DNA of 64,000 nucleotides, taken from a bacterium (GTDB lineage: Bacteria; Auribacterota; Erginobacteria; Erginobacterales; DAOSXE01). The notes under the pieces are model-generated. The model saw nothing but the letters and a program-made list of their open reading frames with translations, had not been told where the DNA came from and made no database searches. A program made the position numbers and the translations under genes. The DNA is taken from positions 1,927-65,926 of the forward strand of contig DAOSXE010000015.1 in NCBI GenBank assembly GCA_035380285.1, read 5' to 3'. Of the stretch, positions 2,743 through 21,812 are shown one piece after another (the stretch's first letter is position 1; every line of letters starts with the position of its first letter).

Positions 2743-3492
2743 TCAGCCGAGCAGGAACCCGCCGGTGTAGCGGACCGACTTCGTGTCCTGAGAGGGCAGG
2801 TTCCAGTCCCGGATCCAGCGGATCGGGCGGGGGCCGCCGCCGCAGACGGGGAACGCGCCGGCGGCCGAACAGAGCGCGTCGACCCAGAAACCGCAGGCCT
2901 CGAGGGCGAACAGCCGCCGGAGGGGCCGACGGCACTCCTCTCCCTCGGCGCACCCCCGCGGACAGACCCGGCACGGCCCGCTGGCGTAGGCGGCGAGGAC
3001 GGCGAAACCTTCCCCGCGCAGGGCTTGCGCCGTCCGGGCGATGAAGGGATGGACCCGGTTCTGGGAGAGTTCGTCCTCGTCCGCTTCCAACTGGACGACG
3101 AGGAAACCGCGGGCGCGGGAGAGAAGCTCCCGCGTCGTTTCGACCGCGGGCGCGTAGGGCGGGCACCCCTTCCACCCCCTCAGGATACCGGGGCAGGAGG
3201 GAATCGTCCCCTCGGCCGTGCGGTAGGGGATGCGGCAGAACCGCTTCACCCGCTCGGCGACGACGGAGGACAGCGGAGGCATCAGCCCGGCCCGGAGAAC
3301 GCCGGGGGCCAGCGCCGGGTCGGCGGCGTGCCGTCGCTCCAGGAGGGCGCCCAGTGCCTCGGCGCGGCGGTCGTAGAAATCCGCGAAGTCCGCGGTGGCT
3401 CCGGCGGCGGAGACGGGGGCGAGCCGCCGGGATTGCCGGATGTATTCCCGCGCCGTGCCGATTTCTCGTCCTCCGTTGTCGGCGACGGGCAC
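2743..3492 (-). CDS. cysteine-rich predicted metal-binding protein (hypothetical)
   Basis: C-terminal ~240 aa of ORF 2743..4251 has protein-like composition with clustered Cys (CRVCPRGC, SCPG); upstream part of that ORF overlaps the next gene and looks like shadow frame; start (GTG) is a guess. Confidence 0.35.
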   Translation of the reverse strand: MPVADNGGREIGTAREYIRQSRRLAPVSAAGATADFADFYDRRAEALGALLERRHAADPALAPGVLRAGLMPPLSSVVAERVKRFCRIPYRTAEGTIPSCPGILRGWKGCPPYAPAVETTRELLSRARGFLVVQLEADEDELSQNRVHPFIARTAQALRGEGFAVLAAYASGPCRVCPRGCAEGEECRRPLRRLFALEACGFWVDALCSAAGAFPVCGGGPRPIRWIRDWNLPSQDTKSVRYTGGFLLG

Positions 3493-3500
3493 GGGCGCCT

Positions 3501-4532
3501 CTAGAAACGGACCCCGGCGAAGCCGGTCACGGTGTTCATCCGGAAGTCGAACGCCTTGTCGAACTTTTCCCGCAGCTCCTCGATTTCGTCCGGGTCGCGG
3601 TCCAGGGCGTTGACCTCGCCGTCCGTACGGAAGTGCAGGTACGCCCCTCCGAAGAACAGATCGACCGCCTCCGAAACCGGGAACTCGATCCGGGCGCTGA
3701 GGCGGTAGGTGTCGAAGTCGATGTCGAGGTCCTTTTCGTGGCGGGTCTTGACGGGGAAATGCTCGGTGGAGCCGTTGTAGGAGAAAAAACCGTAGCGACC
3801 GGAGAGGACCAGGCGCACGCCGTCGGCGGGGCCGAGGGTAAGGTCGCCGCCGGCCCCGAGCACCGGAAGACCGATCCCGCCCCAGCCGTCGGTCTGGCCG
3901 CCGATCACGTACTCCACCGGGGGCTCCTCGTAGACGGTGGTCCCCCGGGGGGGGCCGTCGTCGAGATCGTACTTGCCGAAAATGCCGATCAGCCCCAGGT
4001 AGATCCAGGGAACGAGCGCCACCGATTCCGCGGGTTCGAAGGTGAAGGGGGTGAAAGCAAGATCGATCTCGACCAAACCGGAATCGAGCGAGGCCGTGAA
4101 CTCGTCCCCTTCCGGAATCATCATGTGGTCGTAGCTCTTCCCCCGGTATTCGATGTCGTCGTCGATCCCGATGTAGTAATCGCGGTTGGCCACGGCATCG
4201 GCGTCGGTTCTGAAGTAGGAAGCCTCGAAACTGAGGGTGAAGTATTTCCATTCCTTCTCCACCGCGATGCCGAAGATGGGAACCCGGTCGTTGAGGCCGA
4301 GGTCGTCCAGGGAATACGTGGAACCCTCGCTCTCCCTTCCGATCAGCTCGTAGTACGGGCGGACGGTCTCGGTCACCTCTCCCTCCAGTTCGGAGACCAT
4401 TCCGCCCCCGACCGAAATCAGCCAGCCCCGATCGATCCCGTCGTCGCGGCCCCAGCGAAAAACCCCGGTCCCGGCCCGGGCGGAAGCGGCCCAGCAGCCG
4501 GCGAGGGCGACGGCGAAAAGCAATCTATTCAT
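3501..4532 (-). CDS. secreted hypothetical protein, possible outer-membrane beta-barrel
   Basis: N-terminal signal-peptide-like MNRLLFAVALAGCWAASARA, alternating hydrophobic pattern, C-terminal aromatic residue (ends ...GVRF). Confidence 0.5.
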   Translation of the reverse strand: MNRLLFAVALAGCWAASARAGTGVFRWGRDDGIDRGWLISVGGGMVSELEGEVTETVRPYYELIGRESEGSTYSLDDLGLNDRVPIFGIAVEKEWKYFTLSFEASYFRTDADAVANRDYYIGIDDDIEYRGKSYDHMMIPEGDEFTASLDSGLVEIDLAFTPFTFEPAESVALVPWIYLGLIGIFGKYDLDDGPPRGTTVYEEPPVEYVIGGQTDGWGGIGLPVLGAGGDLTLGPADGVRLVLSGRYGFFSYNGSTEHFPVKTRHEKDLDIDFDTYRLSARIEFPVSEAVDLFFGGAYLHFRTDGEVNALDRDPDEIEELREKFDKAFDFRMNTVTGFAGVRF

Positions 4533-5298
4533 CGGCGTTCTCCCGGTAGGTTTCCAACCGGTCCTCGCCGGGGAAAAATTCCAGGAGTTCGGGCCGGCCG
4601 TCCAGAAGCCGGATCAGCGTGTAGCGTTTGACCCAACAGCCGGTGTTGCCGTACGTCCCCTCCGGGAACGAGGACAGCTCCGGACAGTGGGTGTGCCCGA
4701 GAATAACCAGGTCGTCACCCTCCCGCAGATACTCCCGGGCGCGGACCCGGTAAGCGCCCAAAACCTCTTCGGTGGCCCGGGTAAGCTCGAACCGGCGGCT
4801 GCGGGCGGAGATAAACTCCCCCAACGGCACTCCGGCCGCCGGGGGGAGGAGCCGGTACAGCCGCTGGAGCGCCGGGTTGCGCAGGAGCCGATGGAGAAAA
4901 CGGCTGCCCCGGTCCCCGGGCCGGATCCCGTCGCCGTGCCTGACCCTCACGTTCCTCCCCTGGAGCTTTCCCCGGAACTCCCGGTCGTGGACGGTGACGC
5001 CCACGGTCTCGCTGACGAACGGCCCCAGGGCGAAATCGTGGTTGCCCTGACAGTAGTGGACCTCAACCCCGGCCTCGACCAGAGAGCGGAGGGCGTGGAG
5101 AGGACGGAAATAGTCGGGCCGGACGGCGTAACGGTATTCGATCCAGAAATCGAAGAGGTCGCCGACGATGAAGATCCGGGAGGCTCCCCCGCCCCACTTT
5201 CTCAGAAAGGACTCGAGGGCGGCGCCCCGGCCCTCGCCCCCCTCGATGCCGATGCCCAGGTGGGCGTCCGAAACGAAATAAATCGGCTTTGACGGCAC
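4525..5298 (-). CDS. LpxH-like calcineurin-type metallophosphoesterase (UDP-2,3-diacylglucosamine diphosphatase family)
   Basis: Metallophosphoesterase motifs in order: FVSDAHLG, GDLFDFW, GNHDF, HGD, GHTH. Confidence 0.6.
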   Translation of the reverse strand: MPSKPIYFVSDAHLGIGIEGGEGRGAALESFLRKWGGGASRIFIVGDLFDFWIEYRYAVRPDYFRPLHALRSLVEAGVEVHYCQGNHDFALGPFVSETVGVTVHDREFRGKLQGRNVRVRHGDGIRPGDRGSRFLHRLLRNPALQRLYRLLPPAAGVPLGEFISARSRRFELTRATEEVLGAYRVRAREYLREGDDLVILGHTHCPELSSFPEGTYGNTGCWVKRYTLIRLLDGRPELLEFFPGEDRLETYRENADE

Positions 5299-5397
5299 TG
5301 GTTCGTTCCCCGGCGTTGCCGATACCCGAAAACCGGACCATCCTGCCGGCCCGGCCTGTTATAACCATACCACAGATCGGACGGAAACGCAGGAGAC

Positions 5398-8816: not shown

Positions 8817-8925
8817 GCCGGCGGAAACCCGAAATTTCCTTGCATTTCGGGCCGATCCGTCTATCCTGTTGCGCCCCTGTCCCCGTTTCGACGAGCCGGA
8901 CGGGGCCAACACGCGGAGCAATGCG

Positions 8926-11019
8926 ATGACCAGAGAAATACCAATCGAAAAAGTCCGAAACATCGGGGTCATGGCCCACATCGACGCCGGGAAAACCACG
9001 GTGACGGAACGCATCCTTTTCTTCACCGGCCGCAGCCATAAGATCGGAGAGGTACACGACGGCGAAGCGACCATGGACTGGATGGTTCAGGAACAGGAAC
9101 GCGGGATCACCATCACCTCGGCGGCCACCACCGCCTTCTGGAAAGGCCATAGAATCAACATCATCGATACCCCGGGCCACGTCGACTTCACCGCGGAAGT
9201 CGAGCGTTCGCTCCGGGTCCTGGACGGGACCGTCGCTCTCTTCTGCGCGGTGGGCGGCGTCCAGCCCCAGTCGGAGACGGTATGGCGCCAGGCCGAGAAA
9301 TACATGGTCCCGCGTATCGCCTTCATCAACAAGATGGACCGGATCGGGGCCGATTTCGACGGCGTGGTGAAGGAAATCGAGGTGACCCTGGGGGCCAACC
9401 CGGTTCCGATCGTGATCCCGATCGGGGCGGGCGCGGAATTCGAAGGCGTCGTCGATCTGATCGAGATGAAGGCGATTTTCTACGACGAGGCGCCCGTCGG
9501 GGCGCGGATCCGGGAAGAAGCCGTTCCGGCCGAGCTCAGGGAAAGAGCGGAAGCCGCCCGGGAGTTTTTAGTCGAACGGGTCAGCGAACAGGACGACGCC
9601 CTCATGGAGAAATACGTGGGGGGACAGGAACCCTCCCGGGACGAACTGACGGCGGCCCTGCGCGGGGCCGTCATCCGCGGGGAGGTCATCCCGGTCCTCT
9701 GCGGCGCCGCGTTCAAGAATAAGGGCGTCCGCCGGCTGCTCGACGCCATCGTCGATCTTCTCCCCTCCCCCCTCGACCTGCCCCCGGCCATCGGCACCCG
9801 CAAGGAGGAGAACAAGGAGATCATCCGCCACCCTTCCGAGGACGCCCCGCTGGCCGCCCTGGCCTTCAAGATCATGGCCGACCGGCACCTGGGGAAACTG
9901 ACCTACCTGAGGGTCTACTCGGGGGTGCTCGCCAACGGGTCGTTCGTCTTCAACTCCAACCTGGAAACCAGGCAGCGGGTGGGGCGGATATTCCTCATGC
10001 ACGCCAACAAGCAGCAGGCGGTCGACAATTTGAGAGCCGGCGAGGTGGGGGCGGTGGTCGGCCTGGCCGAGACCAGGACCGGAGACACCGTCTGCGACGA
10101 GGCGCACCCCATCATCCTGGAAAATATCGATTTCCCCGCCCCGGTGATCGGGGTGGCCGTGGCCCCCGCCAGCCGGGCGGACCGGGATCGCCTGGCGGCG
10201 GCCCTGAGCCGCCTGGCCGACGAAGACCCCACCTTCACCGTCCGCACCGAAGAGGAGACGGGCGAAGTGATCATCTCGGGCATGGGCGAACTGCACCTCG
10301 AGGTCATCGTCGATCGGCTCAAGCGCGAATTCAACGTCGCGGTCGAAGTCGGGCAACCCCAGGTCGCCTACCGGGAGACGATCCTGGGGGATATCGAGCA
10401 CCGTTACCGCCACGTCAAGCAGACCGGAGGCCACGGCCAGTTCGCCGACATCATCTTCCGGATCGAGCCGGGCCAACCCGGCGAAGGCTTCCAGTTCTTC
10501 AACGAAATCCGGGGGGGGAACATACCCCGGGAATACATTCCTTCGATCGAACGCGGGGTGGTCGACGCCATGGCCCAGGGACCCTACGCCGGATTTCCCA
10601 TGGTCGACATCGTTTATACCGTCCTGGACGGATCGGCCCACGAAGTCGACTCCTCGGACATGGCCTTCCGCACCTGCGCCGCAGTCGGCTTCAAGGAAGC
10701 CTGCCGCAAGGCGGGCCTGCAGCTTCTGGAACCGATGATGAGCGTGGAGATCGTCACCCCCGAAGAATATATCGGCCCCCTGACCGGGAGCATCTGTTCC
10801 AAGCGGGGAAAGGTAACGAGCCTGATCCACAAGGCCACGCACTGCGTCCTCGCGGGCCAGGTGCCCCTGGCCAACATGTTCGGCTATTCCTCGGAACTGC
10901 GCACCATCACCAGCGGCCGCGGCGATTTTTCCATGCATTTCGAACACTACGCCGCCGTGCCCTTCTCCCTGGCGGAGGAGATCGTGGAACGACGGCGCCG
11001 GGAAGAGAAAATTCCCTGA
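8926..11019 (+). CDS. fusA: translation elongation factor G
   Basis: GTPase motifs [18 protein letters not shown] and full-length EF-G-like architecture (697 aa from internal ATG of ORF 8869..11019). Confidence 0.95.
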
Positions 11020-11088
11020 AGCGGCGGCCGCGAGGGGGCCCGGCGGAAAAAAACCGGCTCCCCGGGGGAGGGAACCGGTCGTGGAGCT
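10915..11088. repeat. 174-bp direct repeat, left copy (putative att site); spans last 105 nt of fusA plus 69 nt downstream
   Basis: Identical nucleotide-for-nucleotide to 21573-21746 (read directly). Confidence 0.9.
11047..11078 (-). terminator. duplicated copy of the tRNA-Ala intrinsic terminator inside the left repeat; positioned to terminate the island operon
   Basis: Same sequence as 21705-21736: on the minus strand an 8-bp stem (one G-U pair) followed by U7. Confidence 0.3.
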
Positions 11089-11281
11089 TTGTCCCTCGAT
11101 CTCAAACTTACTTTGACAACGAAAATGCGCCTACCGGAACATACGATTCGTGAAGTGTGGTTTACTTCACGACCGCGTGCGAGTATCGAGCCGCTCAGCA
11201 CGGGCGCGCAATAACCAGTGTCCTTTACCGTGCTGGCATATCATCACCGCTTTCCAGACCATAAGTACTCACTCGCTGAGT

Positions 11282-12310
11282 CTACGGCACCATCCTCGCG
11301 AAGTAAGGGTAGAGACGAGAGTACCGCTCGTAGTTGCTCATCTTGGCGATACTAACTTCCTCCGAGTCATCACCCTCAGTTAGATACCCTAGAGCGGTAA
11401 CACATACTGTCCCGTCTCCCGTTTCGGTCGGCAGAATTTCTTCGAGCTTCAGACGCTCCTTCGTGCTCAGCACCGGAACATCGATCTCATCGATCAAGCC
11501 CGAAGCAGTCACATAGAGGGGGCTCGTAGCCTTAAAGTGACCAAGCAACGCATCTCGGTTATTCTCCGGACAGAACACCCCTGTTATGCTTAACATAATT
11601 GTACCATCCGAGTACTTTGCCACCTGTAGCGGAAGAAAAGTCTTCGGCTTACTGCAAGCGCTCTCCAGAACCGATAGCACCATATGACTGAGCAACCATG
11701 GGAAGTTCTCCTCTTTGAAGTTCTCCCATGTGAACAGGTCATGGTCATAGGATACTTCTGCGACTGTCATGGCCTTCAGGTAATCATCTCGAAACTCATT
11801 GAAATCTTTCTTCTTGTAGGACGGAAGTATCTGCTGATGGCGCCGAAGCTTGACCTCCCTATATACCGGGGTCTCCGCCATGAGCGTTACCCGCAGCACA
11901 CTCCATTCAAGAGCCTGACGTGCGATACCGGACACTTCTGTCAACTCTTGTCGCCCAGCATCAACGTAATCCACCCACACAATCGTTGGTTTTTCGCTGG
12001 GAAACAGCGTTGACAGGAATTCCTCAAACCGACAGGACAGAAGTTTCACTTTTTTTGAACACTGGTGGAATTTCTGTCGCCTGTACGTCTCACCATCACT
12101 CTCAACCGACACCATGTCAAGGTTCGGGAACACGTTGCTCAGCAACCTGAAGTCTTCAAGAAACGGACCTCCAAACCCGATATACAAATGCTCTTTCAAG
12201 CTATGTGTGAGTTCAAACGTACGCAGCAACTCGACCAAGACCAAGCGATCAATAGCCTTGTTGGATCGCAAATGATATGCTGGATGTTTTGGTTTTCTGA
12301 GCCAGGTCAT
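11282..12310 (-). CDS. hypothetical protein, partner of the GHKL ATPase (4-nt overlap)
   Basis: 342-aa ORF with protein-like composition, last gene of the island gene array; no motif I can assign. Confidence 0.5.
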   Translation of the reverse strand: MTWLRKPKHPAYHLRSNKAIDRLVLVELLRTFELTHSLKEHLYIGFGGPFLEDFRLLSNVFPNLDMVSVESDGETYRRQKFHQCSKKVKLLSCRFEEFLSTLFPSEKPTIVWVDYVDAGRQELTEVSGIARQALEWSVLRVTLMAETPVYREVKLRRHQQILPSYKKKDFNEFRDDYLKAMTVAEVSYDHDLFTWENFKEENFPWLLSHMVLSVLESACSKPKTFLPLQVAKYSDGTIMLSITGVFCPENNRDALLGHFKATSPLYVTASGLIDEIDVPVLSTKERLKLEEILPTETGDGTVCVTALGYLTEGDDSEEVSIAKMSNYERYSRLYPYFARMVP

Positions 12311-13740
12311 TCCCTCGCCTCCTCAAGGATCACGTCAAAGCACCTCGCCCCAACATTGGATGGATTTCTGTCGGGGCTATCAAAGATGTACTGTGAAACA
12401 CGACGCACATCCCTGACAGCACGGGTAAAGACTATTCGCTCCGTCGTCTTCTTCTTGTCCGGTCGCGGTAACACAGGTTTGTACTGTTTGCCTTTCACGG
12501 CACCGCGCGTCGCAGTCATGTGCAATTTCAATGCTCGAGTTCGAATCTCGTCAAGCGTCGCTTTGTGTGTTGATCTCATCTCACATCGAGACTTGGCAAC
12601 GAGATCCTTACCTTTCCATTGGTTAGTGTACTGAGTGAACATCTTTGTTCCCTCAATCATCTTGTCACGCACCTGCAGGTAAAGAGGAGATGAGGCCTCG
12701 ATCCCTCTTTTGGTTGTCGTCATAGGCAAGAGATTCGCGTCATCCGCACTGAATATGACAATCCCCGATATCGCAATGAATTGCATGTGGTATTGCGGCA
12801 CTCCCGAAACTCCCCACCCAGTCAAAGGCGTCTTGTCACAGTAAACTACAGTTCGGTCGTTGCAGATCACAGTCCACCCGGCCTCTGCAGAAGAATACCG
12901 CTCCTTGTAGTTCTCAAGGCCTTCGTCTGCCTCCTCTCGGCTGGGGATCGGGCTCGTGAAACCCACAACAAGGAACACATCAACCCCATCGTGTTTCCCT
13001 TCGTAGATAAAGGGCATTATCGGGTGCTTCGATCTCACCGCTTCCTCCGCGAATAGCAGGCTTATGCTCCTAGGAGTTACCGCCTTTCCGTTGATACGGA
13101 CTTCAAACCCCTTGCCAATGATGTACGCATAGTGCGTCGCTACGGCCTCACGAAACGCTCTCTCAAAGGCTCCGGATTCGAATTCCGTACGCACGGATGA
13201 GTAAATACTTCTGATTTCAAGTGTGGTACCAAGAGTTTCTGCTGGCTTGATCGCGACTACGGGAATCAACCAGTCATCCTCTTTTGATATCCACTGCGGT
13301 GATAGCCGCAAACGGTAAGAACCGTCCTTCGCATGTGTTCTGATTGTGCAGTCCGCTCCCATCTTGAAGATGGCGCGCTTCATCCCAATTCCATACGTAC
13401 CGATGGTTTTTTTCCCCTTGTCTATGTCCGCTTTAATCCGTCCCATGCGAAAGGCGTAGTCATGGTATCTCACCGGTATCCCCCCACAGTTGTCTTCAAT
13501 CCTGAAGCGCGTCCCGTCAAACTCAATACTTGCCCAATATCCCTCGTATGGGAGACGCCTAGAAAGTTGCCGTTTCGTTTCAGCCCGCTGAATACCATCT
13601 ACACAGTTATCCAGCAGATCCAGGATCGCATCCTGAAGCTCGATGTCCCTTGTTAGCATATGTACGAAAAACGACTTGACCGGATTGGCCGGAATGTGTG
13701 GGATCTTCCTAAGATGCATCTGAGTAACCTCCTTATTCAA
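12307..13740 (-). CDS. MORC/MutL-like GHKL-superfamily ATPase (restriction/defence-associated type)
   Basis: Bergerat-fold motifs: N-box LDLLDNCVDG, G1 box EDNCGGIP, G2 box GTYGIGMKRAIF in the N-terminal ~200 aa; ~270 aa C-terminal region unassigned. Confidence 0.7.
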   Translation of the reverse strand: MNKEVTQMHLRKIPHIPANPVKSFFVHMLTRDIELQDAILDLLDNCVDGIQRAETKRQLSRRLPYEGYWASIEFDGTRFRIEDNCGGIPVRYHDYAFRMGRIKADIDKGKKTIGTYGIGMKRAIFKMGADCTIRTHAKDGSYRLRLSPQWISKEDDWLIPVVAIKPAETLGTTLEIRSIYSSVRTEFESGAFERAFREAVATHYAYIIGKGFEVRINGKAVTPRSISLLFAEEAVRSKHPIMPFIYEGKHDGVDVFLVVGFTSPIPSREEADEGLENYKERYSSAEAGWTVICNDRTVVYCDKTPLTGWGVSGVPQYHMQFIAISGIVIFSADDANLLPMTTTKRGIEASSPLYLQVRDKMIEGTKMFTQYTNQWKGKDLVAKSRCEMRSTHKATLDEIRTRALKLHMTATRGAVKGKQYKPVLPRPDKKKTTERIVFTRAVRDVRRVSQYIFDSPDRNPSNVGARCFDVILEEARE

Positions 13741-14914
13741 TAAACTCCTTCATGCGACTAAGTACGCTTTCTGCCAGAATCGGGCTGATGCTATTCCCGA
13801 TCTGTCTAAAGCTGTGCCACTTCGTCGAGTCGAACTGGAACCAGTCGGGGAAGCCCTGCAACCGGGCCGCTTCCCGGGGAGTAATGACGCGCGGCTCTGT
13901 GGGGTGAATTGGCCGAAGGGCTTGGTAGCTTCCATGCTCCGGGTCTGAGCCCGATCTTAGAGTCGGACAGAACCCCTTCCGTGCCAAACGCACAGCTCGC
14001 GAAGGCCCGTCAATGGCTCCCTCCGCCAGCTTGGCGAATCTCTCCAGAACGGTTTTCGTATGCCGTGTACCAAGACAGCCTGAAACGCGGTTCTCGTCTT
14101 GCAAGCGCCTAATCGCCTCCAGATCGCCAACACCCTCTGGTATCTTGTCGCGAATCCTTTCCCAAAACGGGCCGCTGTTGTGAGGCGTTACTGTGCGCCA
14201 ACTCTGGGCTTCTTGCTGCCACTCAGGACTGATCTTCTGGCGAAGACCTAGAAGTGCCGTCCCAACGTTGACTTTCGCGACGTTGGCAGGGGGCGCAAAA
14301 CAATCCTTCGTCAACCCGTTCGCACGCCCCACAACAATACCAATAAAGAACACTCGTTCTCGACTTGTTGCCGCGCCGAAATCCGATGCTTTGAGAATAA
14401 TAGGACCGAGGTTTATGTAGTTAGCCACTCTGGCCAACGCATTCGCGCGAACTTCGTCGAATTGAGAGTCCCGTATGCCTAGCACGTTCTCAGCAATGTA
14501 AAACGTGGGTTGAAGCTCCGCCACCAACCGAAAGAAGTGGTCGAACAGGTTGTTGCGCGCGTCATTTGGTTTGCGGCGACCGATTCGACTAAAACCCTGG
14601 CATGGCGGTCCACCGATAACCCCATCAATTCCGTTGATGTCGATTTGGGCCTTCTCAATAAGTTCTGCGCCTGTGAGTTCAGCAATGTTTGCATCAACGT
14701 ATTCGTATTTAGGGAAGTTCTTCTTGAAAGCGGATTTGGCTTGGGCATTGTTATCCACGGCTGCGGCAATCTGGAAGCCTGCGCGCGCTGCACCGAGAGT
14801 CAACCCTCCCACACCGCAGAACAAGTCAATGACCGTCGGCATACCTTCTGTTCCCTTCGCCGTTTTTCTGTTACCCGTGAAGCTCAGATCCGTCTCTATT
14901 CTTAACTGTATCAA
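13733..14914 (-). CDS. dcm: DNA (cytosine-5)-methyltransferase
   Basis: Motif I DLFCGVGG, motif IV catalytic PPCQGFS, ENV motif, C-terminal QIGNSIS. Confidence 0.9.
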   Translation of the reverse strand: MIQLRIETDLSFTGNRKTAKGTEGMPTVIDLFCGVGGLTLGAARAGFQIAAAVDNNAQAKSAFKKNFPKYEYVDANIAELTGAELIEKAQIDINGIDGVIGGPPCQGFSRIGRRKPNDARNNLFDHFFRLVAELQPTFYIAENVLGIRDSQFDEVRANALARVANYINLGPIILKASDFGAATSRERVFFIGIVVGRANGLTKDCFAPPANVAKVNVGTALLGLRQKISPEWQQEAQSWRTVTPHNSGPFWERIRDKIPEGVGDLEAIRRLQDENRVSGCLGTRHTKTVLERFAKLAEGAIDGPSRAVRLARKGFCPTLRSGSDPEHGSYQALRPIHPTEPRVITPREAARLQGFPDWFQFDSTKWHSFRQIGNSISPILAESVLSRMKEFIE

Positions 14915-15313
14915 TCACAGGCACTCCTCAAATCCATCTTCTGAAAGAATCGCTAGCCTTCCCCCTCTGCGAATCCAAGTGGCTATTCTCTTCACATCTC
15001 GGCCTTCACCAAACGCTGGGGTGCGCCTCCGAACGGCGCATTCCCAAATCACGAGAACACGCCAGCCCATATCTAGCAGTTTGCCTCGCACGCACAAATC
15101 TCGCAATCTGTTGCGTTTAATCTTCTTATTCCAAAACTGCTGATTGCTCTTTGCCTTCGGCCTTCGACCACATTCATGCCCATGCCAGTAGCATCCGTGG
15201 ACGAACACAACAGTCTTATGCCCGGCTAGAACAATGTCAGGTCGGCCCGGTAGATTCCTGGCGTGTAACCGATACCTAAAGCCTTCTCCAAACAGCGTCC
15301 TACGCACCTCCAT
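14915..15313 (-). CDS. vsr: very short patch repair endonuclease
   Basis: LPGRPDIV, FVHGCYWHGHEC and GWRVLVIWECA motifs; lies immediately 5-prime of dcm on the same strand with no gap. Confidence 0.85.
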   Translation of the reverse strand: MEVRRTLFGEGFRYRLHARNLPGRPDIVLAGHKTVVFVHGCYWHGHECGRRPKAKSNQQFWNKKIKRNRLRDLCVRGKLLDMGWRVLVIWECAVRRRTPAFGEGRDVKRIATWIRRGGRLAILSEDGFEECL

Positions 15314-15386
15314 TTCCGGGCCTGTGTTTTTCCCCGATTCGCAGCCATGATCTTGTGCCGAGTCTCAGCATTTACTCGGTCCACCA

Positions 15387-15653
15387 TCAAGACTTCCCTG
15401 CCCTTTTGTCCCGTTGATGCACTTTGTTATGACAAACGATGCACAATGTCTTCAGGTTCCCTTCAATATTTACGCTGCCCTTCACGTGATGCTCGATGTG
15501 ATGCAACTCCAAGTGTCGCGGATCGAACGGGTTCCATTCGTCGTGCGCCCACGCGCAAAACCGGCACTTGTCCCCGTCGCGCCGAAGCAACGGAAGCAAG
15601 CCGAACACACAGTTCAATCGCTTGTCCGACATAGAGATGTGGGGCGACCGCAA
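15387..15653 (-). CDS. small HNH endonuclease
   Basis: CRFC ... HHIEHHVKGSVNIEGNLKTLCIVCHNKVH (HNH motif with flanking Cys pairs); 5-prime end overlaps the end of the preceding gene so true start may be the internal Met (MSDKRL). Confidence 0.6.
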   Translation of the reverse strand: MRSPHISMSDKRLNCVFGLLPLLRRDGDKCRFCAWAHDEWNPFDPRHLELHHIEHHVKGSVNIEGNLKTLCIVCHNKVHQRDKRAGKS

Positions 15654-16720
15654 CCTGCAATCTCACCAACCGCCTGACCGACAACAGCGTATGTGTCATA
15701 GCTCGGTATCCGGAGCATTGGACCGGTGAAAGACGCACAAAGAAGAGGTACTCGTTCGCGTAGATGTGCAGACCCCAAATCTCCTCCGCCAATCTTCACA
15801 CCATGGTCAGCCACTACGAACACCCAATCGCCAGAACGAAGAAAATCCAAGAATGACTGTAGAAAAGCGTCAAACCGCTCAAGGGTTCGCCAGCACGCCG
15901 ATGCATCTCCCATGTGGGCATAACGGTCAAAATCCTCCAGATTGACCATGATAAATGCCTCGTCCTCCGCCGCTGTAACCTCTGCATTCAACAGCTCAAA
16001 GCACTGCTCGTCTCGCTCAGTTCGTACTGCCATATTCGCTGGCAAGGATAGGATTTCCTGCACCTTGCCGTTGACTATCCGTCTCCATCCAAGCGGCACG
16101 AATTTCTGCAGCAGAGACTCTCCATCGATCATCTGAAAGAAGTCACGCCGTAGTTCTTCAACCGGTTCTCCGCCACGCAACGGTCTTGCAAGCACCTTCT
16201 TCACGCATAACTCCGCTGATGCATCCAACATGCAGCGGAGTGCCTGTGCGACTTTATATAGACACTCACGGGGCACGACAATTTCATCTGCACTCACGAC
16301 CACAGTGCTGTCGAGCCCCCTATAGAGCATTATTGCCCCAGTTTGCAAATGTTCGAGCCACAACTCCGGGAGAACATCCCTGCCCCTTCCCTGTTTGTTG
16401 CCAATCAACTTAACTCCACAATTATTGCCAAGCTTCATCAGAACATCACGCGGTAGCGGTTCCGAGGGTATAGGGTGAGGTTGTTTAGTTATCCATCCGA
16501 ACATCTCGCGATGTCCTTCCTCCGATCCCACCGCGACTGACGCTTGTCTCATCACATGTCCACGACCCGTGACCGCAGCATCCAATCCCATATTAAAAAG
16601 GACTGGAAGAACGGAGATTTTGCGGCCGTACTGTTCGCACAGAGTCCCTAGGGTGCTGGTCTCACCGCCGTCAGGAGCAACTCCAAAACCATCTACAACG
16701 ATCACAAAAACGCGCGACAT
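15614..16720 (-). CDS. phosphopentomutase-like metalloenzyme (alkaline phosphatase superfamily)
   Basis: N-terminal FVIVVDGFG, central NLEDFD, C-terminal VVADHG ... HLRERVPLL, matching the DeoB-type motif order. Confidence 0.7.
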   Translation of the reverse strand: MSRVFVIVVDGFGVAPDGGETSTLGTLCEQYGRKISVLPVLFNMGLDAAVTGRGHVMRQASVAVGSEEGHREMFGWITKQPHPIPSEPLPRDVLMKLGNNCGVKLIGNKQGRGRDVLPELWLEHLQTGAIMLYRGLDSTVVVSADEIVVPRECLYKVAQALRCMLDASAELCVKKVLARPLRGGEPVEELRRDFFQMIDGESLLQKFVPLGWRRIVNGKVQEILSLPANMAVRTERDEQCFELLNAEVTAAEDEAFIMVNLEDFDRYAHMGDASACWRTLERFDAFLQSFLDFLRSGDWVFVVADHGVKIGGGDLGSAHLRERVPLLCASFTGPMLRIPSYDTYAVVGQAVGEIAGCGRPTSLCRTSD

Positions 16721-18534
16721 CAGGATTCAAATTTTCTGATTCGCAGGTTAACGAATTCAACAACTTTCCGCCAAAGACTGGCGATTGAAACTTTGCTGCC
16801 AAGCGAGAGTTCTCCTTCATACTGAAGAAGAAGAGGAATGATCGGTATAGTTACCTTTAGCTTGTCCGTAACAGAAATATCAGACTTCAGCACAGTGGAA
16901 GTAACGGAGACCCGTTCTGCGACCTTAGGCAAAATGGCTGAAGATTTTATGGTGTCACAGAGCGTCGCTAACACCTCTCTGGATTCTTCAAGCAGCGCTT
17001 TCATCTCCTCTGTTTCAGGCTCATGGTCCATCGCTGAGACGAATGACTCGACAACAACATCCCGGGCCGTTCTCGCCTCTGATACCGCCTCTGTAGCAGC
17101 GATCTTCCCTGCCATCTGAAGTTGTTCGTATTCCATGACAGACGCGACGACTCTGCCCCGTATCTCTAGGATATCTTCCTCAAGCCGCTGGATGCTTTTG
17201 GGTCGGTCCTCGACTCTCAGGGTATCTTCAGTGCGTTTGAGAAGGACGAAGTCCTTGCGTAGATTATCCCGAATATCTTCCAGCCTCTGTTTCTCTACCG
17301 GTATCCCGTTAGCCACTGTTTCGTCCTTCCTCTCTTCACAGGATCTGGGAACGCCGACGATTCTCCTCACATCGGTCAGAATATCCTTTGGGGCCGATGC
17401 CTCGGAGACAGCGCCAAGAATATGCACCAATGCTGTCACGCTCGAACGTATCCGCTCTGGGTCCGAAAGCAACCCGCGTCCCATTTGAATCATCACGTCC
17501 GCACCAAATGTCTCAACGTTCTGAAATATTTCTTCGAGGAAAATACTTCCCGAAGAAACAGCGAAGCATGGTCTGAGACCATACTGATCGCCCTGTAGCT
17601 TTTCGATTTCCTCCTTCAATATTGCTTGCTCATACGGAAAATCCTGGGTGAACGGCCCTGTGTAGACAGCATCTCCACCTGCAAGTCGCGAAAGTAGGGC
17701 AATTACCTGCTCCGCTAGGTAGTGCGTGCTCTTGCGCGTCAATACACCCCGGCCGATGTTGTTCACAACGAATGCTGTCTGACCATCACACGTATCGATC
17801 ACATGCCTGACAGCCGAAAAACCCATCGCGATACAGTTGAGGGTAAAACCACAAACGCCATGGCGCTGTCCATCCTCGACCAAGCGCAAGGATGTCTCCA
17901 CATCTGCGGTTGCATTCATGAAGTAGCCCAACTTGCGCCCCGTTTTCTCTTGGGCTGCAGTAACTACGGTTTCAATGGCCTGTGCGCGTTGTCCAAATGG
18001 ACTACAACTTGGGGACACGAGCAACTCGTCGTCAATCACGTAGTCAACACCACCCTCCAATGCTCTTTGCACTGTTGGGAGAATATCAGATAGACTCATG
18101 CGCAACCGCGGTTTCAGGATGAGCCCCAGAAGCGGCCGTTGGGAAACACCAAGAAGCTTCCTAATCCCTGATACACCATACCTTGGCCCCTTGTATTCAT
18201 CGAGGCAAACTTTGGGCAATGCCAGATCCACCACGGCAAATCGCTTCAGCGCTGAAAAGACAGAGCAATAGCACACACTCCCTAGGAGCATGGCGAGACC
18301 CGTACCAAGTCCAGCAGAACAAGGCGGCAGGGACAAAAGCACTTCAAGCTCGTTCTTGGATTGATCAATCTCACGAACATCGAGAATCTCTGGGTCTTCG
18401 TGAAATTCACAAGGCTCATCGGTACGTCGCAGCGGAATCGTTCCGGTGCTGCCTAGATCCATCGCAGCGAGGAGTTGCTTCAGCCCCTTCTCACGGTTTT
18501 CTAGGATCATGTGAAGTGTTACAGTTGCATGCAT
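16720..18534 (-). CDS. RuBisCO large-subunit-like protein (RLP) with Lys-to-Ile at the carbamylation position and a ~200-aa C-terminal extension
   Basis: [29 protein letters not shown] parallels the RuBisCO [30 protein letters not shown] signature; [10 protein letters not shown] aligns to [18 protein letters not shown] parallels GHYLNATA; C-terminal region is charged and coiled-coil-like. Confidence 0.7.
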   Translation of the reverse strand: [604 protein letters not shown]

Positions 18535-18543
18535 AATCGATCC

Positions 18544-19113
18544 TTAGTGCTTAACGTCAATGACTTTGCCATCTACAAGAAAGGTTCCGCTCGTCAAGTG
18601 GTACACCTGCGGTATTGCACTTCTCAGTTTTATCTTATCCTCTGAGAACAATTCTTTATCGATATCTGCTGCAACGACCAATCCAACAACAACGTGGTGG
18701 TTTCCTGCCTCCTTGTGCCATTGCAGCTTACATTCCAGATTGACTGCACATTCTGCTATCCGCGCGGGCTTCACCTTGTTCCTCGCATATGGTGTCAATC
18801 CCGTTTCCTCAAACTCATCCACGGCCGGCGGATACTCGTTAGCAGCCTGGTAAAGTTGAGTCAGAATCTTGCTCGTAGGAATTCCTACCACAAACTCGCC
18901 GGTCTTTGAGATATTCTTGAAGGTGTCAGACTTTGGCGAGATACCAAGCGCAACCATCGGGGGGCACGTCGAACACGGCGTGAACATAGCGTAGGGTGCC
19001 AAGTTCTTAACCCCCGCTGTGTCGACCGTTGACACGAGTACAACAGGGGACGGCTGAACCAAGTAGACAACTTTTGCAACTTTGTCTAAGACCTCGATCT
19101 TCTGATACTTCAT
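18544..19113 (-). CDS. flavin reductase-like (FMN-binding split-barrel) protein
   Basis: VVLVSTVD...NLAPYAMFTPCS..PPMVALGI...DTFKNISKTGEFVVGIP pattern typical of flavin reductase family. Confidence 0.7.
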   Translation of the reverse strand: MKYQKIEVLDKVAKVVYLVQPSPVVLVSTVDTAGVKNLAPYAMFTPCSTCPPMVALGISPKSDTFKNISKTGEFVVGIPTSKILTQLYQAANEYPPAVDEFEETGLTPYARNKVKPARIAECAVNLECKLQWHKEAGNHHVVVGLVVAADIDKELFSEDKIKLRSAIPQVYHLTSGTFLVDGKVIDVKH

Positions 19114-21059
19114 CTTGTATCTCCTCTCATCTGATCTACCATTTCAACCAAATCCGCAAAAACAAGGTCTGGCCGGGAATCATGCGTGCGTCGAGCCACA
19201 TCTTCAGCAGTACTTATCCCTCCAAGAACAAGGCAAGCCAACGCTCCAGCCTTTCTGGCTGCTGCTATGTCAGTATCGAGCGAATCCCCAATTACGGCTA
19301 CCTCTTGCGGTTTCATACCCATAAGATGAAGTAGAAGGCGAAGCGAGAAGTCATTTGGTTTCCCCACGACAAAGGGCGATTTGCCAGTTACTGTTTCAAT
19401 TGCAGCCACAATCCAGCCAGTTCCGGGCTTGTCCATACCCGGAGCAGCGAACACACGATCCCGGTCCGTGCATACGAACTCCGCACCCTTCAAAATTGCT
19501 CGCTGGGCTGCCACTAGGTCGGCATATATGAAATCCTTTGAATAGCCAACGACAACTGCGTCAATGTAACCAGTGTGATCATTGGCGGCGATATCCATGC
19601 CACCGCAGGCGAGCAACTCAGGTAGTGCTGGTGCTCCACCCAGCACCAAGCAACACCTGTATCCCTTAGTGCGGCAATACTCGGCAGCGGCAATAGTGGA
19701 CGTCATGATATGCCGCGGGTCCGCTATCACGGCCATCTGGCCGAGTTTGTCTGCTAACTCCTGCTGCCTTCTTACGCTCGTGTTTGTCAAGAAGCCAACT
19801 GTAACGCCAGATTGTCGCAAAATGCGAATGGCCGCGAGGCTGGCTTCTATCGGCTTGTCTCCTTTATAGAGAACACCGTCGAGATCCAGCACAACTCCCC
19901 GTTTTGAAGCCAGATCCCGCAGCTTATCCGTGGACTTTACTGGCACCCTCGGATGGCGTGGCTCGCGTGGGCGTGAACATTGGATCGTATAGAGCGACCT
20001 CACGGCGGTATTCCAGGATAGCTTGTACTCTTCATGGCCGCGCATGAAATCAACTTCCTGTAGCCCGTTATCGCAAGCCCATCGAATCGCTTCACCCAAT
20101 AGCACTAGCCCCGGAGAACAATCGTCTAACGCCAAATCAAAGGATGTGTTCCAGTCATAGTATCTGCCACCACGGATGAAGCCCATCCGATAAGCAACTA
20201 TGTTGCCGTTCAGAAGCAGATGAAAAAGACAGAAATTCCCGGTTCCGGCGAAATCTTTCGCAACGTCATGAATGAAGCCTCTGCGCCTTGTGTCGGCAAA
20301 TGCTTGGACTCCGTGAATACTGTCCCAACGAGTATCATGGAGATCAAATAGACGTTCGAGGGTTTCATGGTCGTAATCCCGGACAACTTGGAGTTCTACC
20401 TTGCCGCGGCGGCGCAGAGCCCGCATCTTGCGGTTCAGCATTCGCCGCCGGTTTCTTGTCCGTGACTTAAGATACTTATCCCAAGAACAACCAAGTTCTA
20501 TATACGGCGCATCCTCTGCCCTGACAATAACCGGTGATAGACCGCAATCTTGAAGTGCACGTGTTACAATGTGCAAGGTGACGTCATCTTGCCGTATGTT
20601 TTGTAGCCTTATTTCATCCCATTCCAAATGGTCGCACATCGCGGCTGCGATGCGGTCGATAGGATCACATGCAAAGGCCGAGAAGACTCCGCCTAGGTAG
20701 TCACTACAACAATCAGAAAGAAGCGTAAGGATCGTATGGGATCCTACGCGTTTGCGCATCAGAGGCAGAATGGCAAGAACGTCATCTCCCAGCGCGGCCC
20801 AGAAGATGGACAATTCCCTGTCAGAACCGAAGTGGCCCCACCAGTACGAAAGCCAACGTGGATCAACCGAGACTGGAAGGTTAGGCTGTTTTTCAAGGAT
20901 CTTAACCCAGTGAGGGTAGATTGCGGACCACTCCTCATTGCTCCTCACAACACCGACCTGGGCCCTACGATAGTCGCGTTCCGTCGACATGTAGTTACGC
21001 AGGGAATATTGCCAACTTGTCTGTGATGCATCCAGCCAGCTATCGCTGCACATCATCAC
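19110..21059 (-). CDS. fusion protein: large N-terminal FemAB/CelD-like acyltransferase-type domain (tentative) plus C-terminal HAD-IIA phosphatase domain
   Basis: C-terminal HAD motifs in order (VVLDLDGVLY, FLTNTS, GKP, IGDSLDTDI) are clear; N-terminal ~370 aa Trp-rich domain assigned by resemblance only. Confidence 0.65.
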   Translation of the reverse strand: MMMCSDSWLDASQTSWQYSLRNYMSTERDYRRAQVGVVRSNEEWSAIYPHWVKILEKQPNLPVSVDPRWLSYWWGHFGSDRELSIFWAALGDDVLAILPLMRKRVGSHTILTLLSDCCSDYLGGVFSAFACDPIDRIAAAMCDHLEWDEIRLQNIRQDDVTLHIVTRALQDCGLSPVIVRAEDAPYIELGCSWDKYLKSRTRNRRRMLNRKMRALRRRGKVELQVVRDYDHETLERLFDLHDTRWDSIHGVQAFADTRRRGFIHDVAKDFAGTGNFCLFHLLLNGNIVAYRMGFIRGGRYYDWNTSFDLALDDCSPGLVLLGEAIRWACDNGLQEVDFMRGHEEYKLSWNTAVRSLYTIQCSRPREPRHPRVPVKSTDKLRDLASKRGVVLDLDGVLYKGDKPIEASLAAIRILRQSGVTVGFLTNTSVRRQQELADKLGQMAVIADPRHIMTSTIAAAEYCRTKGYRCCLVLGGAPALPELLACGGMDIAANDHTGYIDAVVVGYSKDFIYADLVAAQRAILKGAEFVCTDRDRVFAAPGMDKPGTGWIVAAIETVTGKSPFVVGKPNDFSLRLLLHLMGMKPQEVAVIGDSLDTDIAAARKAGALACLVLGGISTAEDVARRTHDSRPDLVFADLVEMVDQMRGDTR

Positions 21060-21572
21060 TCCTGTTACTTGCTTTTTTCTTCCCGGGCGGCGAGATTCTC
21101 CTCAATCATGCGTGACACAATCCAAGAGAGCGAACGCTCCTCTTTCTCCGTCAACTCTTCCAAGATTTCTTAGACTTGCGGGGTAACTCGGACGCTCAGG
21201 AGTTTTATTTTCAGTTCAACCTTGTGCCTTTTCGTAGGGTGTACGACGTCATGCATTTGCATGCTGATTTTAATAATATATGATGTGTATGCTGTGTGAT
21301 GATAGTAGAAAGAAGAAGGATCCGATAAACTGCTTTCTGTATGCCCATTAGTCGATTGATTAGTCCACCCGTCAGATGCTATAAATTGAGGCGCAGGTCA
21401 CGGGACTTTTGGAGTATGCCCAGAAGGAACGTCTGCATCGTGGAGAAGTTTACGGAATTCATGACAGCATGGAAACCGGGCTGACCGGTTTTCAATGCAA
21501 TGATGGATCGGGGAGTCAAATGCGCTGCTCGCGTGGCTCCCTGACCGCTTCGGGCGTAACCCACTCGGCGGG

Positions 21573-21677
21573 GGCCGCGGCGATTTTTCCATGCATTTCG
21601 AACACTACGCCGCCGTGCCCTTCTCCCTGGCGGAGGAGATCGTGGAACGACGGCGCCGGGAAGAGAAAATTCCCTGA
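21573..21677 (+). pseudogene. duplicated 3-prime fragment of fusA (last 34 codons plus stop) created by the repeat; not an independent gene
   Basis: Sequence identical to fusA 10915-11019 but lacks the upstream ~2 kb of the gene. Confidence 0.7.
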
Positions 21678-21704
21678 AGCGGCGGCCGCGAGGGGGCCCG
21701 GCGG

Positions 21705-21736
21705 AAAAAAACCGGCTCCCCGGGGGAGGGAACCGG
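21705..21736 (-). terminator. intrinsic terminator directly downstream of tRNA-Ala
   Basis: On minus strand: ccgguucc / ggagccgg stem (8 bp, one G-U) with 9-nt loop followed by U7, beginning 4 nt after the tRNA 3-prime end. Confidence 0.5.
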
Positions 21737-21739
21737 TCG

Positions 21740-21812
21740 TGGAGCTGAGGGGATTCGAACCCCTGACCCCATGGCTGCCAGCCATGTGCTCTCCCAGCTG
21801 AGCTACAGCCCC
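21740..21812 (-). tRNA. tRNA-Ala (anticodon GGC)
   Basis: Reverse complement folds as cloverleaf: acceptor GGGGCTG/CAGCTCC with G3-U70 alanine identity pair, D-arm GCTC/GAGC, anticodon loop CTGGCAG, T-arm AGGGG-TTCGAAT-CCCCT; CCA not encoded. Confidence 0.9.

Follow-up and report, generated by a model that had tools for sequence, protein, structure and literature searches.

The dcm gene in the window, by which we mean the whole 64,000-nucleotide stretch of bacterial DNA analyzed, belongs, judging from gene content across genomes, to a conserved and horizontally mobile cassette of three genes, the other two encoding a MORC-like GHKL ATPase and a PF20553 (Methyltransf_35) protein. We favor, with moderate confidence, the view that this cassette is a methylation-linked candidate defense system resembling restriction-modification (R-M), whose accessory genes have decayed in the window. 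It is not a classical restriction system, because vsr is frameshifted and the small HNH gene is a truncated leftover. The original prediction had read dcm, vsr and the HNH ORF as an orphan methylation-repair module or a compact R-M system.

The dcm gene

The dcm, vsr and HNH ORFs all lie on the minus strand, and their coordinates were confirmed. The dcm gene (13733..14842, minus strand) encodes a C5-cytosine DNA methyltransferase of 369 aa from ATG 14842, in an ORF that reaches TTG 14914. The protein is intact and keeps every catalytic motif. It matches Pfam DNA_methylase (PF00145, E 7.8e-56, profile positions 2-323 of 324) and TIGR00675 dcm (E 4.3e-42), and it aligns over its full length with PDB 3g7u (E 1.3e-113). 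DLFCGVGG, GGPPCQGFS, ENV, RE..RLQGFPD and GNS are seen in the protein, and the 3g7u alignment displays DLFCGVGG, GGPPCQGFS, AENV, REAARLQGFPDWF and GNS; motifs I, IV, VI, VIII, IX and X occur in that sequence, and a variable target-recognition region separates VIII from IX. The Pfam, TIGR00675 and 3g7u matches and the catalytic motifs bear out the earlier statement that the C5-methyltransferase motifs are unambiguous. The statement that vsr precedes dcm without a gap was correct as to the order but not as to the gap. A zero gap needs the TTG at 14914, whereas homology to all relatives begins at ATG 14842, which leaves about 72 nt between the end of vsr and the probable start of dcm.

Conservation of the cassette

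Homologues of the GHKL gene were found at 524 places in GTDB species genomes, and the counts given here come from the best 80 of these loci, which represent many bacterial phyla and one archaeon. A PF20553 gene adjoins the GHKL gene in all 80 of these best loci. Dcm adjoins the GHKL-PF20553 pair in 73 of the same 80 and is immediately upstream on the same strand in 64; the order of Dcm and the pair is mostly fixed, with gaps of tens of bases. Since these 80 are the nearest relatives, the association with Dcm may be weaker family-wide. A T:G repair gene is facultative, being Vsr in 39 of the 80 loci and an HhH-GPD glycosylase in 12, with none in the remaining 29. Unsupervised clustering of the neighboring ORFs yielded no further conserved partner beyond the HhH-GPD glycosylase (12 loci), and no nuclease gene or family was conserved among the neighbors of the 80 loci. 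Other flanking genes are heterogeneous (200 Pfam families among 129 neighbors).

The protein distances of GHKL and PF20553 are strongly correlated (rho 0.81, Mantel p 0.002) versus 0.15 for GHKL and Dcm, a comparison that uses whole proteins and says nothing on the target-recognition regions of Dcm versus the pair. The GHKL and PF20553 genes are an obligate, co-evolving pair. The Dcm proteins of the 80 loci, which share 36% identity or more with the window Dcm, all belong to a single 3g7u-like family, in which class-A Dcm pairs with Vsr and class-B Dcm with HhH-GPD. This pattern indicates that the 3g7u-like Dcm family travels with a facultative Vsr or HhH-GPD gene and is exchanged among GHKL-PF20553 pairs. 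With two strictly conserved partners, the window Dcm is not an orphan.

The GHKL ATPase and the PF20553 protein

The GHKL gene (12307..13719, minus strand; the ORF reaches TTG 13740) encodes a predicted ATPase of 470 aa with a MORC-type GHKL+S5 architecture and a helical C-terminus of ~130 aa. Bergerat-fold ATP-binding motifs are followed by an S5-fold transducer domain; the folds matched are MORC3, SMCHD1 and MORC2, and the sequence matches to MORC3/4 are weak (E 0.003-0.02). The PF20553 gene (11282..12310, minus strand) starts 4 nt inside the GHKL stop and encodes a protein with a class-I SAM-methyltransferase fold of the Trm1/RsmD type. The Rossmann-like seven-strand fold, the glycine-rich SAM loop and the acidic residue after strand 2 are all present, and the G-rich loop and acidic residues are conserved. 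Its motif IV is an unusual WxDY versus (D/N)PP(Y/F), and a viral fold search with the protein returned generic methyltransferases only.

No conserved nuclease motif was found in the GHKL family, whose alignment has no invariant D/E/H after residue 340, or in the PF20553 family. The suggestion that the restriction activity might reside in the GHKL pair is the part of the original prediction that is borne out, insofar as GHKL and PF20553 are the conserved neighbors of Dcm, but neither carries a recognizable nuclease motif, which makes any restriction mechanism a conjecture. Scans of the nine proteins of the surrounding island against PADLOC-DB 2.0.0 (2023) and NCBIfam gave no defense-system model for GHKL or PF20553. 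The PADLOC matches were to Dcm (generic MTase_II, DruM and DrmMII), to Vsr and, weakly, to a ZorE-like HNH; the remaining seven island proteins gave no match.

Prophage and defense settings

The trio is also carried by prophages. In P2-like prophages of E. coli it occupies the gpA-gpQ interval, in 46 of 5426 complete E. coli genomes (about 1%), and none of these copies has a repair gene. The gpA-gpQ locus is an experimentally supported P2 defense hotspot (PMC9122126). Rousset et al. catalogued the trio, and the systems they tested did not include it. In the Pseudomonas Pf prophage PfAC20 the trio sits at the accessory end. In a DISARM operon, an inserted GHKL-PF20553 pair separates drmMI from drmA, and its partner there is an N6-adenine methylase. 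A role in R-M systems, alongside Dcm and Vsr, was predicted for MORC/paraMORC GHKL proteins (Iyer et al. 2008, PMC2292703), and the trio was nowhere described in the literature that we searched.

These settings bear on whether Dcm belongs to the system at all. The GHKL-PF20553 pair could be an autonomous two-gene system (for example of an abortive-infection, toxin-antitoxin-like or type IV-like modification-dependent sensor kind) that merely tends to insert beside DNA methyltransferase genes, with Dcm-Vsr a separate orphan unit. The strict linkage and co-evolution of the pair next to an exchangeable Dcm fit this proposal, as do the DISARM insertion, seven cyanobacterial loci in which the pair stands among housekeeping genes with no adjacent DNA methyltransferase, and the behavior of Dcm and its repair gene as a sub-module of their own (class B with HhH-GPD, class A with Vsr). 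We nevertheless regard it as rather unlikely, given that Dcm is immediately adjacent in 73 of the 80 loci, mostly in one order, that the Dcm proteins are a single family and not random methylases, and that prophages bear all three genes jointly.

The low-GC island and the disrupted vsr gene

The cassette forms the 3' half of a low-GC island of 10.5 kb, which holds nine genes, all on the minus strand and tightly packed, with overlapping stops and starts. The island is bounded by a perfect 174-bp direct repeat. The left copy (10915..11088) contains the 3' end of fusA, a terminator hairpin and 8 nt of the 3' end of tRNA-Ala, and the right copy (21573..21746) abuts tRNA-Ala(GGC) at 21739-21812. 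Neither a terminator nor a good promoter was found in the island interior, and an Rfam search returned tRNA only. We compared the island with copies in other assemblies (NCBI, JGI, ENA, Logan), for which 10 contigs were retrieved of 13 on record. Nine further contigs are 100% identical across the island and a tenth is one 2-nt indel apart; at least four contigs run across both island junctions. The same sequence in ten separately assembled contigs rules out an assembly artefact behind the island or the vsr frameshift. As the copies are all identical, they permit no inference on selection acting on the HNH and vsr remnants in the lineage.

The vsr gene (14915..15389, minus strand), for a very-short-patch repair endonuclease, is disrupted and spread over two ORFs (15226-15390 and 14915-15313). 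Its homology is clear from Pfam (PF03852, E 4.1e-21) and TIGR00632 (E 6.5e-32, 110 bits versus a cut-off of 97.85), and to that extent the description of the Vsr motifs as unambiguous held; an intact gene is not what the window contains, the frameshift having been missed. The 132-aa Vsr ORF matches the profile only from position 26-28 on, and the absent N-terminus (MVDRVNAETRHKIMAANRGK) is found in the other frame, at 15226-15390. Translating all three frames and aligning them with intact Vsr proteins (L011, L014, L016 and L039) placed a 1-nt deletion inside the GGGGAAAAA run (15327..15335, minus strand), with the first ~25 codons in a different frame from the remainder and no single intact frame through the N-terminal segment. 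With one G added to the run (15335-15327), the sequence encodes a Vsr of 157 aa, colinear with the intact homologues. All 10 retrieved contigs (13 on record) share the deletion, and its presence in separate assemblies rules out a sequencing error. Read in the upstream frame, the run spells G_GGA_AAA (15334-15328), which has the form of a -1 slippery heptamer, and a -1 shift there would recover the ancestral ...ANRGKNTGPEMEVRR... exactly. The sequence 3' of the heptamer shows no stimulatory structure (z +0.98; 173 of 200 shuffles fold equally well), which leaves programmed -1 frameshifting as a formal possibility only. The vsr gene is thus inactivated, or crippled at best, by a fixed 1-nt deletion.

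The state of vsr weakens the reading of the locus as an orphan methylation-repair module, as do the two strictly conserved partners of Dcm. A broader form of that reading is a methylation-and-repair module with no part in defense, in which a solitary epigenetic or anti-restriction Dcm has a private repair pathway, and Vsr or HhH-GPD, a dedicated MutL-like GHKL protein and its partner fix T:G mismatches and other side products of C5 methylation. We consider this account unlikely. The repair gene is absent from 29 of the 80 loci and from every E. coli P2 copy, and in the window the pair is intact while vsr is broken. In DISARM the pair accompanies an N6-adenine methylase, and in cyanobacteria it is found without a methylase. 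The best structural matches are to MORC and SMCHD1, not MutL, repair offers no evident task for a subunit with a SAM-methyltransferase fold, and the locations are phage-defense hotspots.

The small HNH ORF

An HNH ORF (15387..15653, minus strand; 81 aa from ATG 15632 or 88 aa from TTG 15653) was found upstream of vsr, overlapping the end of the phosphopentomutase-like gene (15614-16720, minus strand) as first described. It matches Pfam HNH (E 3.4e-6), contains the core CxxC...HH...N...CxxCH...H and keeps all the invariant columns (C30, C33, H51, H52, N62, N66, C71, C74, H75 and H79). Its homology to the family is limited to residues ~15-76, which correspond to the last ~62 residues of the family members, the nuclease core, and it matches profile positions 50-111 only. 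Other family members are either 102-136 aa long or ~310-330 aa with two winged helices and the HNH domain, and the window ORF is 5'-truncated relative to every homologue. It lacks the upstream block GRPDLGVGVYVLQADRQSPEHDRxIPDDVRREV conserved in the 102-136 aa forms and the winged-helix DNA-binding repeats of the full-length members (relatives of 300-335 aa), and the lost N-terminus is not encoded in the other frames. We conclude from these alignments that the ORF is what is left of the 3' part of a winged-helix-HNH nuclease gene, which was severed where it now meets the phosphopentomutase-like gene. The family itself belongs to another Dcm-linked module, made up of Dcm, HNH_2 (PF13391), an 84-aa protein and the small HNH protein. 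The C-terminal HNH of the winged-helix-HNH nucleases and of the HNH protein in this module is 63-76% identical to the window core. Unlike that module, the window copy has nothing upstream of the core, and the HNH_2 and 84-aa partners, which we sought in the window, are absent.

A compact type II R-M system, with the 81-88 aa HNH protein as the cognate endonuclease of Dcm, was part of the original prediction. The ββα-Me core is undamaged, both CxxC pairs included, the frame is open, the stop overlaps the vsr start, and HNH relatives adjoin Dcm genes, one being fused to a Dcm. We nonetheless hold this to be very improbable, considering the truncation, the parts missing in every frame and the absent companions. 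Only one of the 80 homologous modules (the best 80 of 524 GHKL places) has a relative of this HNH nearby, so the ORF is not conserved in homologous islands, an outcome that the original prediction had itself named as refuting it, and with 79 of the 80 modules devoid of it there is no linked, conserved cognate restriction endonuclease.

We give scarcely any credence to the idea that all nine co-oriented island genes are one system, in which the metabolic enzymes (a RuBisCO-like protein, the phosphopentomutase-like enzyme, a flavin reductase and a GNAT-HAD enzyme) would supply the methylase/GHKL part with a nucleotide or sugar-phosphate compound or use one up. The tight minus-strand packing without internal terminator or good promoter speaks for it, but the four metabolic genes are near none of the 80 GHKL loci, and the two halves meet in the truncated HNH gene, as is typical of a recombination joint. 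Besides identical copies, the RuBisCO-like protein had no close relatives in the metagenomes scanned.

Comparison with known systems

The cassette resembles the MORC/paraMORC R-M operons (PMC2292703), in which a GHKL+S5 ATPase stands beside a cytosine methylase, often with Vsr, and which are sporadic and laterally mobile; the window GHKL fold, closest to eukaryotic MORC3, MORC2 and SMCHD1, agrees with this likeness. Those operons mainly have SF-II helicases and recognizable endonucleases (RE-fold, HNH or fused RecB-like), whereas the cassette has no conserved helicase or nuclease and its constant partner is the PF20553 protein. A second likeness is to the HEF_HK/Response_reg_2 duplet (Bellieny-Rabelo et al. 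2021, PMC8011034), with its upstream C5-methylase, HATPase_c_3 GHKL protein and tightly linked partner. In those loci the partner is small, Vsr is often downstream and the commonest nearby nuclease is HNH_2 (PMC8011034). However, PF19191 and PF19192 were undetected here even at E<=5, and the cassette partner has a SAM-methyltransferase fold of 310-345 aa and not a receiver-like domain.

As in the Dcm-Vsr pair of E. coli, a C5-methylase gene and a Vsr T:G endonuclease gene lie in the same orientation. The E. coli vsr overlaps the dcm 3' end, while the window vsr precedes dcm and is frameshifted, and its dcm has two further obligate neighbors. BREX and DISARM combine a self-marking methyltransferase with ATPase effectors and no defined nuclease, as the cassette would. 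Unlike them, the window has no PglZ, BrxC/L, DrmA/B/C or DrmD, and only the generic DrmMII and DruM models match Dcm; the PADLOC scan found none of the signature components of DISARM, BREX, Druantia or Mza (DrmA/B, PglZ/BrxC, DruA-E, MzaA-E). Mza also has a GHKL ATPase, the MutL-like MzaB, but the NCBIfam MzaB match is 15.5 bits against a cut-off of 850, and the other Mza components are absent.

Proposed function

In the candidate defense system that we favor, Dcm would put a 5mC mark on host DNA, and an ATP-driven dimer of the MORC-like protein, together with the SAM-binding PF20553 subunit as a base-flipping reader or second modifier, would act on unmarked DNA. Interference would probably be by DNA clamping or compaction or by recruitment of a host nuclease, in a BREX-like manner; an endonuclease of its own is unlikely because no nuclease is conserved. 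Vsr would be dispensable, merely limiting the C-to-T mutational cost of 5mC. Dcm and the pair do not diverge together, a difficulty for this view if the pair has to recognize the sequence motif of the methylase. A more specific and tentative version, of which we are doubtful, makes the pair a nuclease-free effector that reads DNA methylation. The SAM-binding, base-flipping subunit of methyltransferase fold would load the MORC-type ATPase onto DNA without the Dcm mark, which would then be silenced or trapped.

A Dcm-Vsr pair with a small HNH ORF is in itself ordinary, and here two of the three genes have decayed; a short HNH ORF beside a methylase should not be called a restriction enzyme by default. 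The noteworthy unit is the trio of Dcm, MORC-like ATPase and PF20553 protein, which occurs on prophages, in ~1% of complete E. coli genomes and in species-level genomes by the hundred, and is placed in a validated defense hotspot, yet without a PADLOC-DB 2.0.0 (2023) model or a description in the literature searched. If the trio defends, it would be another case of methylation-based immunity without restriction, with no recognizable nuclease. It would also offer an experimental handle on the role of prokaryotic MORC-like ATPases, a question that dates from the 2008 prediction and touches on how eukaryotic MORC/DNA-methylation silencing arose. Should the nuclease-free reading be true, the trio would be a direct bacterial counterpart, and possibly an ancestor, of the eukaryotic MORC-dependent silencing tied to cytosine methylation.

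Results

A 10.5-kb segment (~11089-21572) has a GC content of 0.50-0.53, as against ~0.65 on either flank, and is delimited by perfect 174-bp direct repeats (10915-11088 and 21573-21746). Each repeat is made up of 105 nt from the 3' end of fusA, a strong terminator hairpin and 8 nt from the 3' end of tRNA-Ala; the neighbours of the island are fusA on the left (8869-11019, plus strand) and tRNA-Ala(GGC) on the right (21739-21812). No integrase or transposase was found within the island, and its layout resembles the product of a Campbell-type single crossover via the 174-bp host-derived segment. Thirteen contigs with the island are on record and we retrieved ten, which stem from several samples: nine (NCBI MAGs and JGI, ENA and Logan assemblies) carry the island with 100% identity at the same chromosomal place, and the tenth differs from the window island only by a single 2-nt indel. 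Since the same island recurs in separate assemblies, several of which span both junctions, we consider it real. The ten contigs offered no usable sequence variation within this lineage, which occurs in digester samples such as JGI 3300009775 and 3300025702.

The island contains nine closely packed minus-strand genes, which in transcription order encode a GNAT (Acetyltransf_6)-HAD fusion (19110-21059), a flavin reductase (18544-19113), a RuBisCO-like protein of 604 aa (16720-18534), a phosphopentomutase-like metalloenzyme (15614-16720), a small HNH ORF (15387-15653), Vsr (14915-15389), Dcm (13733-14914 as an ORF extending to TTG), a GHKL ATPase (12307-13740) and a PF20553 'putative O-methyltransferase' (11282-12310). 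The RuBisCO-like gene shares its operon with the phosphopentomutase-like, flavin reductase and GNAT-HAD (phosphoglycolate-phosphatase-like) genes. Its product has a C-terminal extension of ~220 aa and is not a carboxylase, because the carbamylated-lysine motif has IDDE in place of KDDE and Arg stands at the position of K177. The only close relatives found were identical copies; in one contig (L006, ENA ERZ795057 NODE_3395, 3487-5299) the 2-nt indel splits the gene into ORFs of 300 and 299 aa.

The original prediction saw in dcm, vsr and the HNH ORF an orphan methylation-repair module or compact restriction-modification (R-M) system, and of these three ORFs only dcm proved to be intact. From its sequence the identity of Dcm is unambiguous (Pfam E 7.8e-56; full-length match to PDB entry 3g7u, E 1.3e-113), and with every signature motif present the enzyme looks catalytically competent. 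The homology shared with all relatives starts at ATG 14842 and not at TTG 14914, placing the likely start of dcm ~72 nt from the vsr stop. The homology of Vsr is also clear, but its 132-aa ORF aligns only from profile position 26-28 onwards and the N-terminus (MVDRVNAETRHKIMAANRGK) was found in a different reading frame of the DNA. Adding one G to the GGGGAAAAA run at 15335-15327 yields a 157-aa Vsr colinear with the intact Vsr of related loci, for example that of locus L011 (MVDRVDKQTRHRIMRANRGKNTGPEV...). The deletion is present in every retrieved assembly and is therefore a fixed mutation. In the upstream frame the mutated site reads G_GGA_AAA, at which a -1 slip would exactly recreate the ancestral sequence; no stimulatory structure was found 3' of this site, and we therefore treat vsr as disrupted.

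The ββα-Me zinc-finger core is complete in the HNH ORF, which overlaps the phosphopentomutase-like gene at the 3' end of the latter. Its close homologues are few, 102-136 aa long, and all carry, N-terminal to the core, a conserved block (GRPDLGVGVYVLQADRQSPEHDRxIPDDVRREV) which is missing from the window ORF and is not encoded in any other window frame. Searching 1.8 billion representatives with a profile gave 113 relatives at E<1e-10, many of them proteins of 300-335 aa with two winged-helix repeats followed by a C-terminal HNH; one is fused to Dcm and another has an Mrr_N domain. The window ORF matches profile positions 50-111 only, and judged by this homology it is a remnant. The homology breaks off at the stop codon of the phosphopentomutase-like gene, and the HNH thus marks the recombination joint between the 'metabolic' and methylase halves of the island. 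Where its context could be read, the small HNH form sits in another module, made up of Dcm, HNH_2 (PF13391, ~258 aa), an 84-aa protein and HNH; neither the HNH_2 nor the 84-aa protein was found in the window. This small module recurs (L092, 5499-8011; L093, 3841-6353; L011, 12664-14162) as a C5-methylase, a 258-aa HNH_2, a conserved protein of 84-126 aa with no Pfam match and an HNH of 111-123 aa. In L011 a Vsr-Dcm-GHKL-PF20553 cassette immediately precedes the last three of these genes.

Full-length homologues of the GHKL protein, ~470 aa long, number in the thousands. We scanned one genome per GTDB species with a GHKL profile, confirmed 524 places and analysed the best 80 loci, which come from Planctomycetota, Chloroflexota, Acidobacteriota, Latescibacterota, Desulfobacterota, Nitrospirota, Cyanobacteria, Pseudomonas, Verrucomicrobiota and one methanogen. 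The PF20553 gene follows the GHKL gene in all of these best 80 (median gap ~8 nt), and a Dcm of the window's family adjoins in 73; in 64 of these dcm is the next gene upstream and has the same orientation. The four metabolic island genes occur in none of the 80, and although the nine island genes are closely packed on one strand, their reading as a single system is poorly supported. A compact R-M system with HNH fares no better; the core of the HNH is complete, but such an HNH lies near only one of the best 80 loci (L011), as a separate profile search of these loci confirmed.

Vsr is present in 39 of the best 80 loci, either upstream of dcm as in the window or downstream of PF20553. Blind clustering of neighbouring ORFs in the 80 loci recovered a sole further recurrent partner, an HhH-GPD/EndoIII-like glycosylase, in 12 loci, whose Dcm belongs to a subclass that is more divergent (36-41% identity with the window Dcm). 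In these loci, including L012, L023, L025, L030, L034, L047, L050, L052, L054, L056 and L070, the glycosylase gene stands upstream of dcm in place of vsr, and its product has a 4Fe-4S cysteine motif. HhH-GPD appears to be a non-orthologous replacement of Vsr, and from these counts T:G repair is an optional accessory, for which one or the other of two analogous enzymes is used. One of two main rival explanations is a private 5mC-damage repair module in which a MutL-like ATPase would help Vsr.

Genes flanking the module differ from locus to locus (200 Pfam families in 129 flanking proteins), as is typical of a mobile cassette that is self-contained. The distances of GHKL correlate strongly with those of PF20553 (rho 0.81, Mantel p 0.002), whereas Dcm distances are not correlated with those of GHKL (rho 0.15), indicating an obligate GHKL-PF20553 pair with an exchangeable Dcm(+repair) sub-module. 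The C-terminal ~130 residues of GHKL are helical, without an invariant Asp, Glu or His, and no recognisable nuclease was found in GHKL, PF20553 or any conserved neighbour.

P2-like prophages of E. coli carry the trio in the interval flanked by gpA (replication) and gpQ (portal), one variant occurring in 46 of 5426 complete genomes. Its proteins have the accessions WP_029401229 (Dcm), WP_029401228 (PF20553) and WP_029401227 (GHKL), with strain 7/2 (NZ_CP023820, 2425283-2428798) as an example. PGAP annotates the genes of the trio as DNA cytosine methyltransferase, O-methyltransferase and ATP-binding protein, and identities to the window proteins are 48-50% for Dcm, 26-27% for PF20553 and 38-42% for GHKL. 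The gpA-gpQ locus, which holds old and tin in phage P2, is a hotspot of anti-phage systems (Rousset et al., PMC9122126); precisely this gene order appears, under the same accessions, in Table S5 of that study, and the trio was not among the systems tested. A more distant trio (GHKL and Dcm 31-39% identical, PF20553 recognised by Pfam) occupies the accessory end of the filamentous Pseudomonas prophage PfAC20 (L095, PP058144, 280-3711), where GHKL, PF20553 and Dcm are the first three genes, beside the repressor/excisionase region. On the Microvirga terrae plasmid pR24_2 (L094, NZ_CP102847, 5980-8394) the pair interrupts a DISARM operon: it is inserted between drmMI, which encodes the MmeI-like methylase, and drmA, with no C5-methylase nearby. 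Filamentous cyanobacteria (L073, L077, L082, L084, L086, L087 and L089) carry a lone pair, and its neighbours are housekeeping genes (GH31 glycosidase, NADH dehydrogenase subunit, ABC transporter).

Discussion

Defence is the most likely role of the cassette, given the trio in the gpA-gpQ hotspot and at the accessory end of PfAC20, the pair in a DISARM operon, and two earlier publications. Iyer et al. (PMC2292703) predicted that MORC and paraMORC ATPases function in R-M systems with Dcm and Vsr, and Bellieny-Rabelo et al. (PMC8011034) described a parallel architecture of C5-methylase, HATPase_c_3 protein, small partner and Vsr, although the partner domains of that system are not detectable in the window. 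Beyond the composition that we observed, we infer that Dcm would mark resident DNA, and that a MORC-like dimer with the SAM-binding PF20553 subunit would act on unmarked DNA. As the cassette has no nuclease, interference by ATP-driven clamping or compaction, or by recruitment of host nucleases, would be more likely than cleavage by the cassette itself. Counting against an R-M-like model, Dcm does not diverge in step with the pair, and seven cyanobacterial loci have the pair without an adjacent methylase. The second main rival is an autonomous two-gene system merely nesting beside methylases; against it, Dcm adjoins the pair in most of the best 80 loci.

The one part of the original interpretation that still stands is its proposal of the GHKL pair as functional partner. 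The window holds a degraded representative of a variant of the paraMORC-type, methylase-linked cassettes; this variant is widespread and has been catalogued but not characterised. The interest of the finding lies in the trio, rather than in the Dcm-Vsr-HNH picture.
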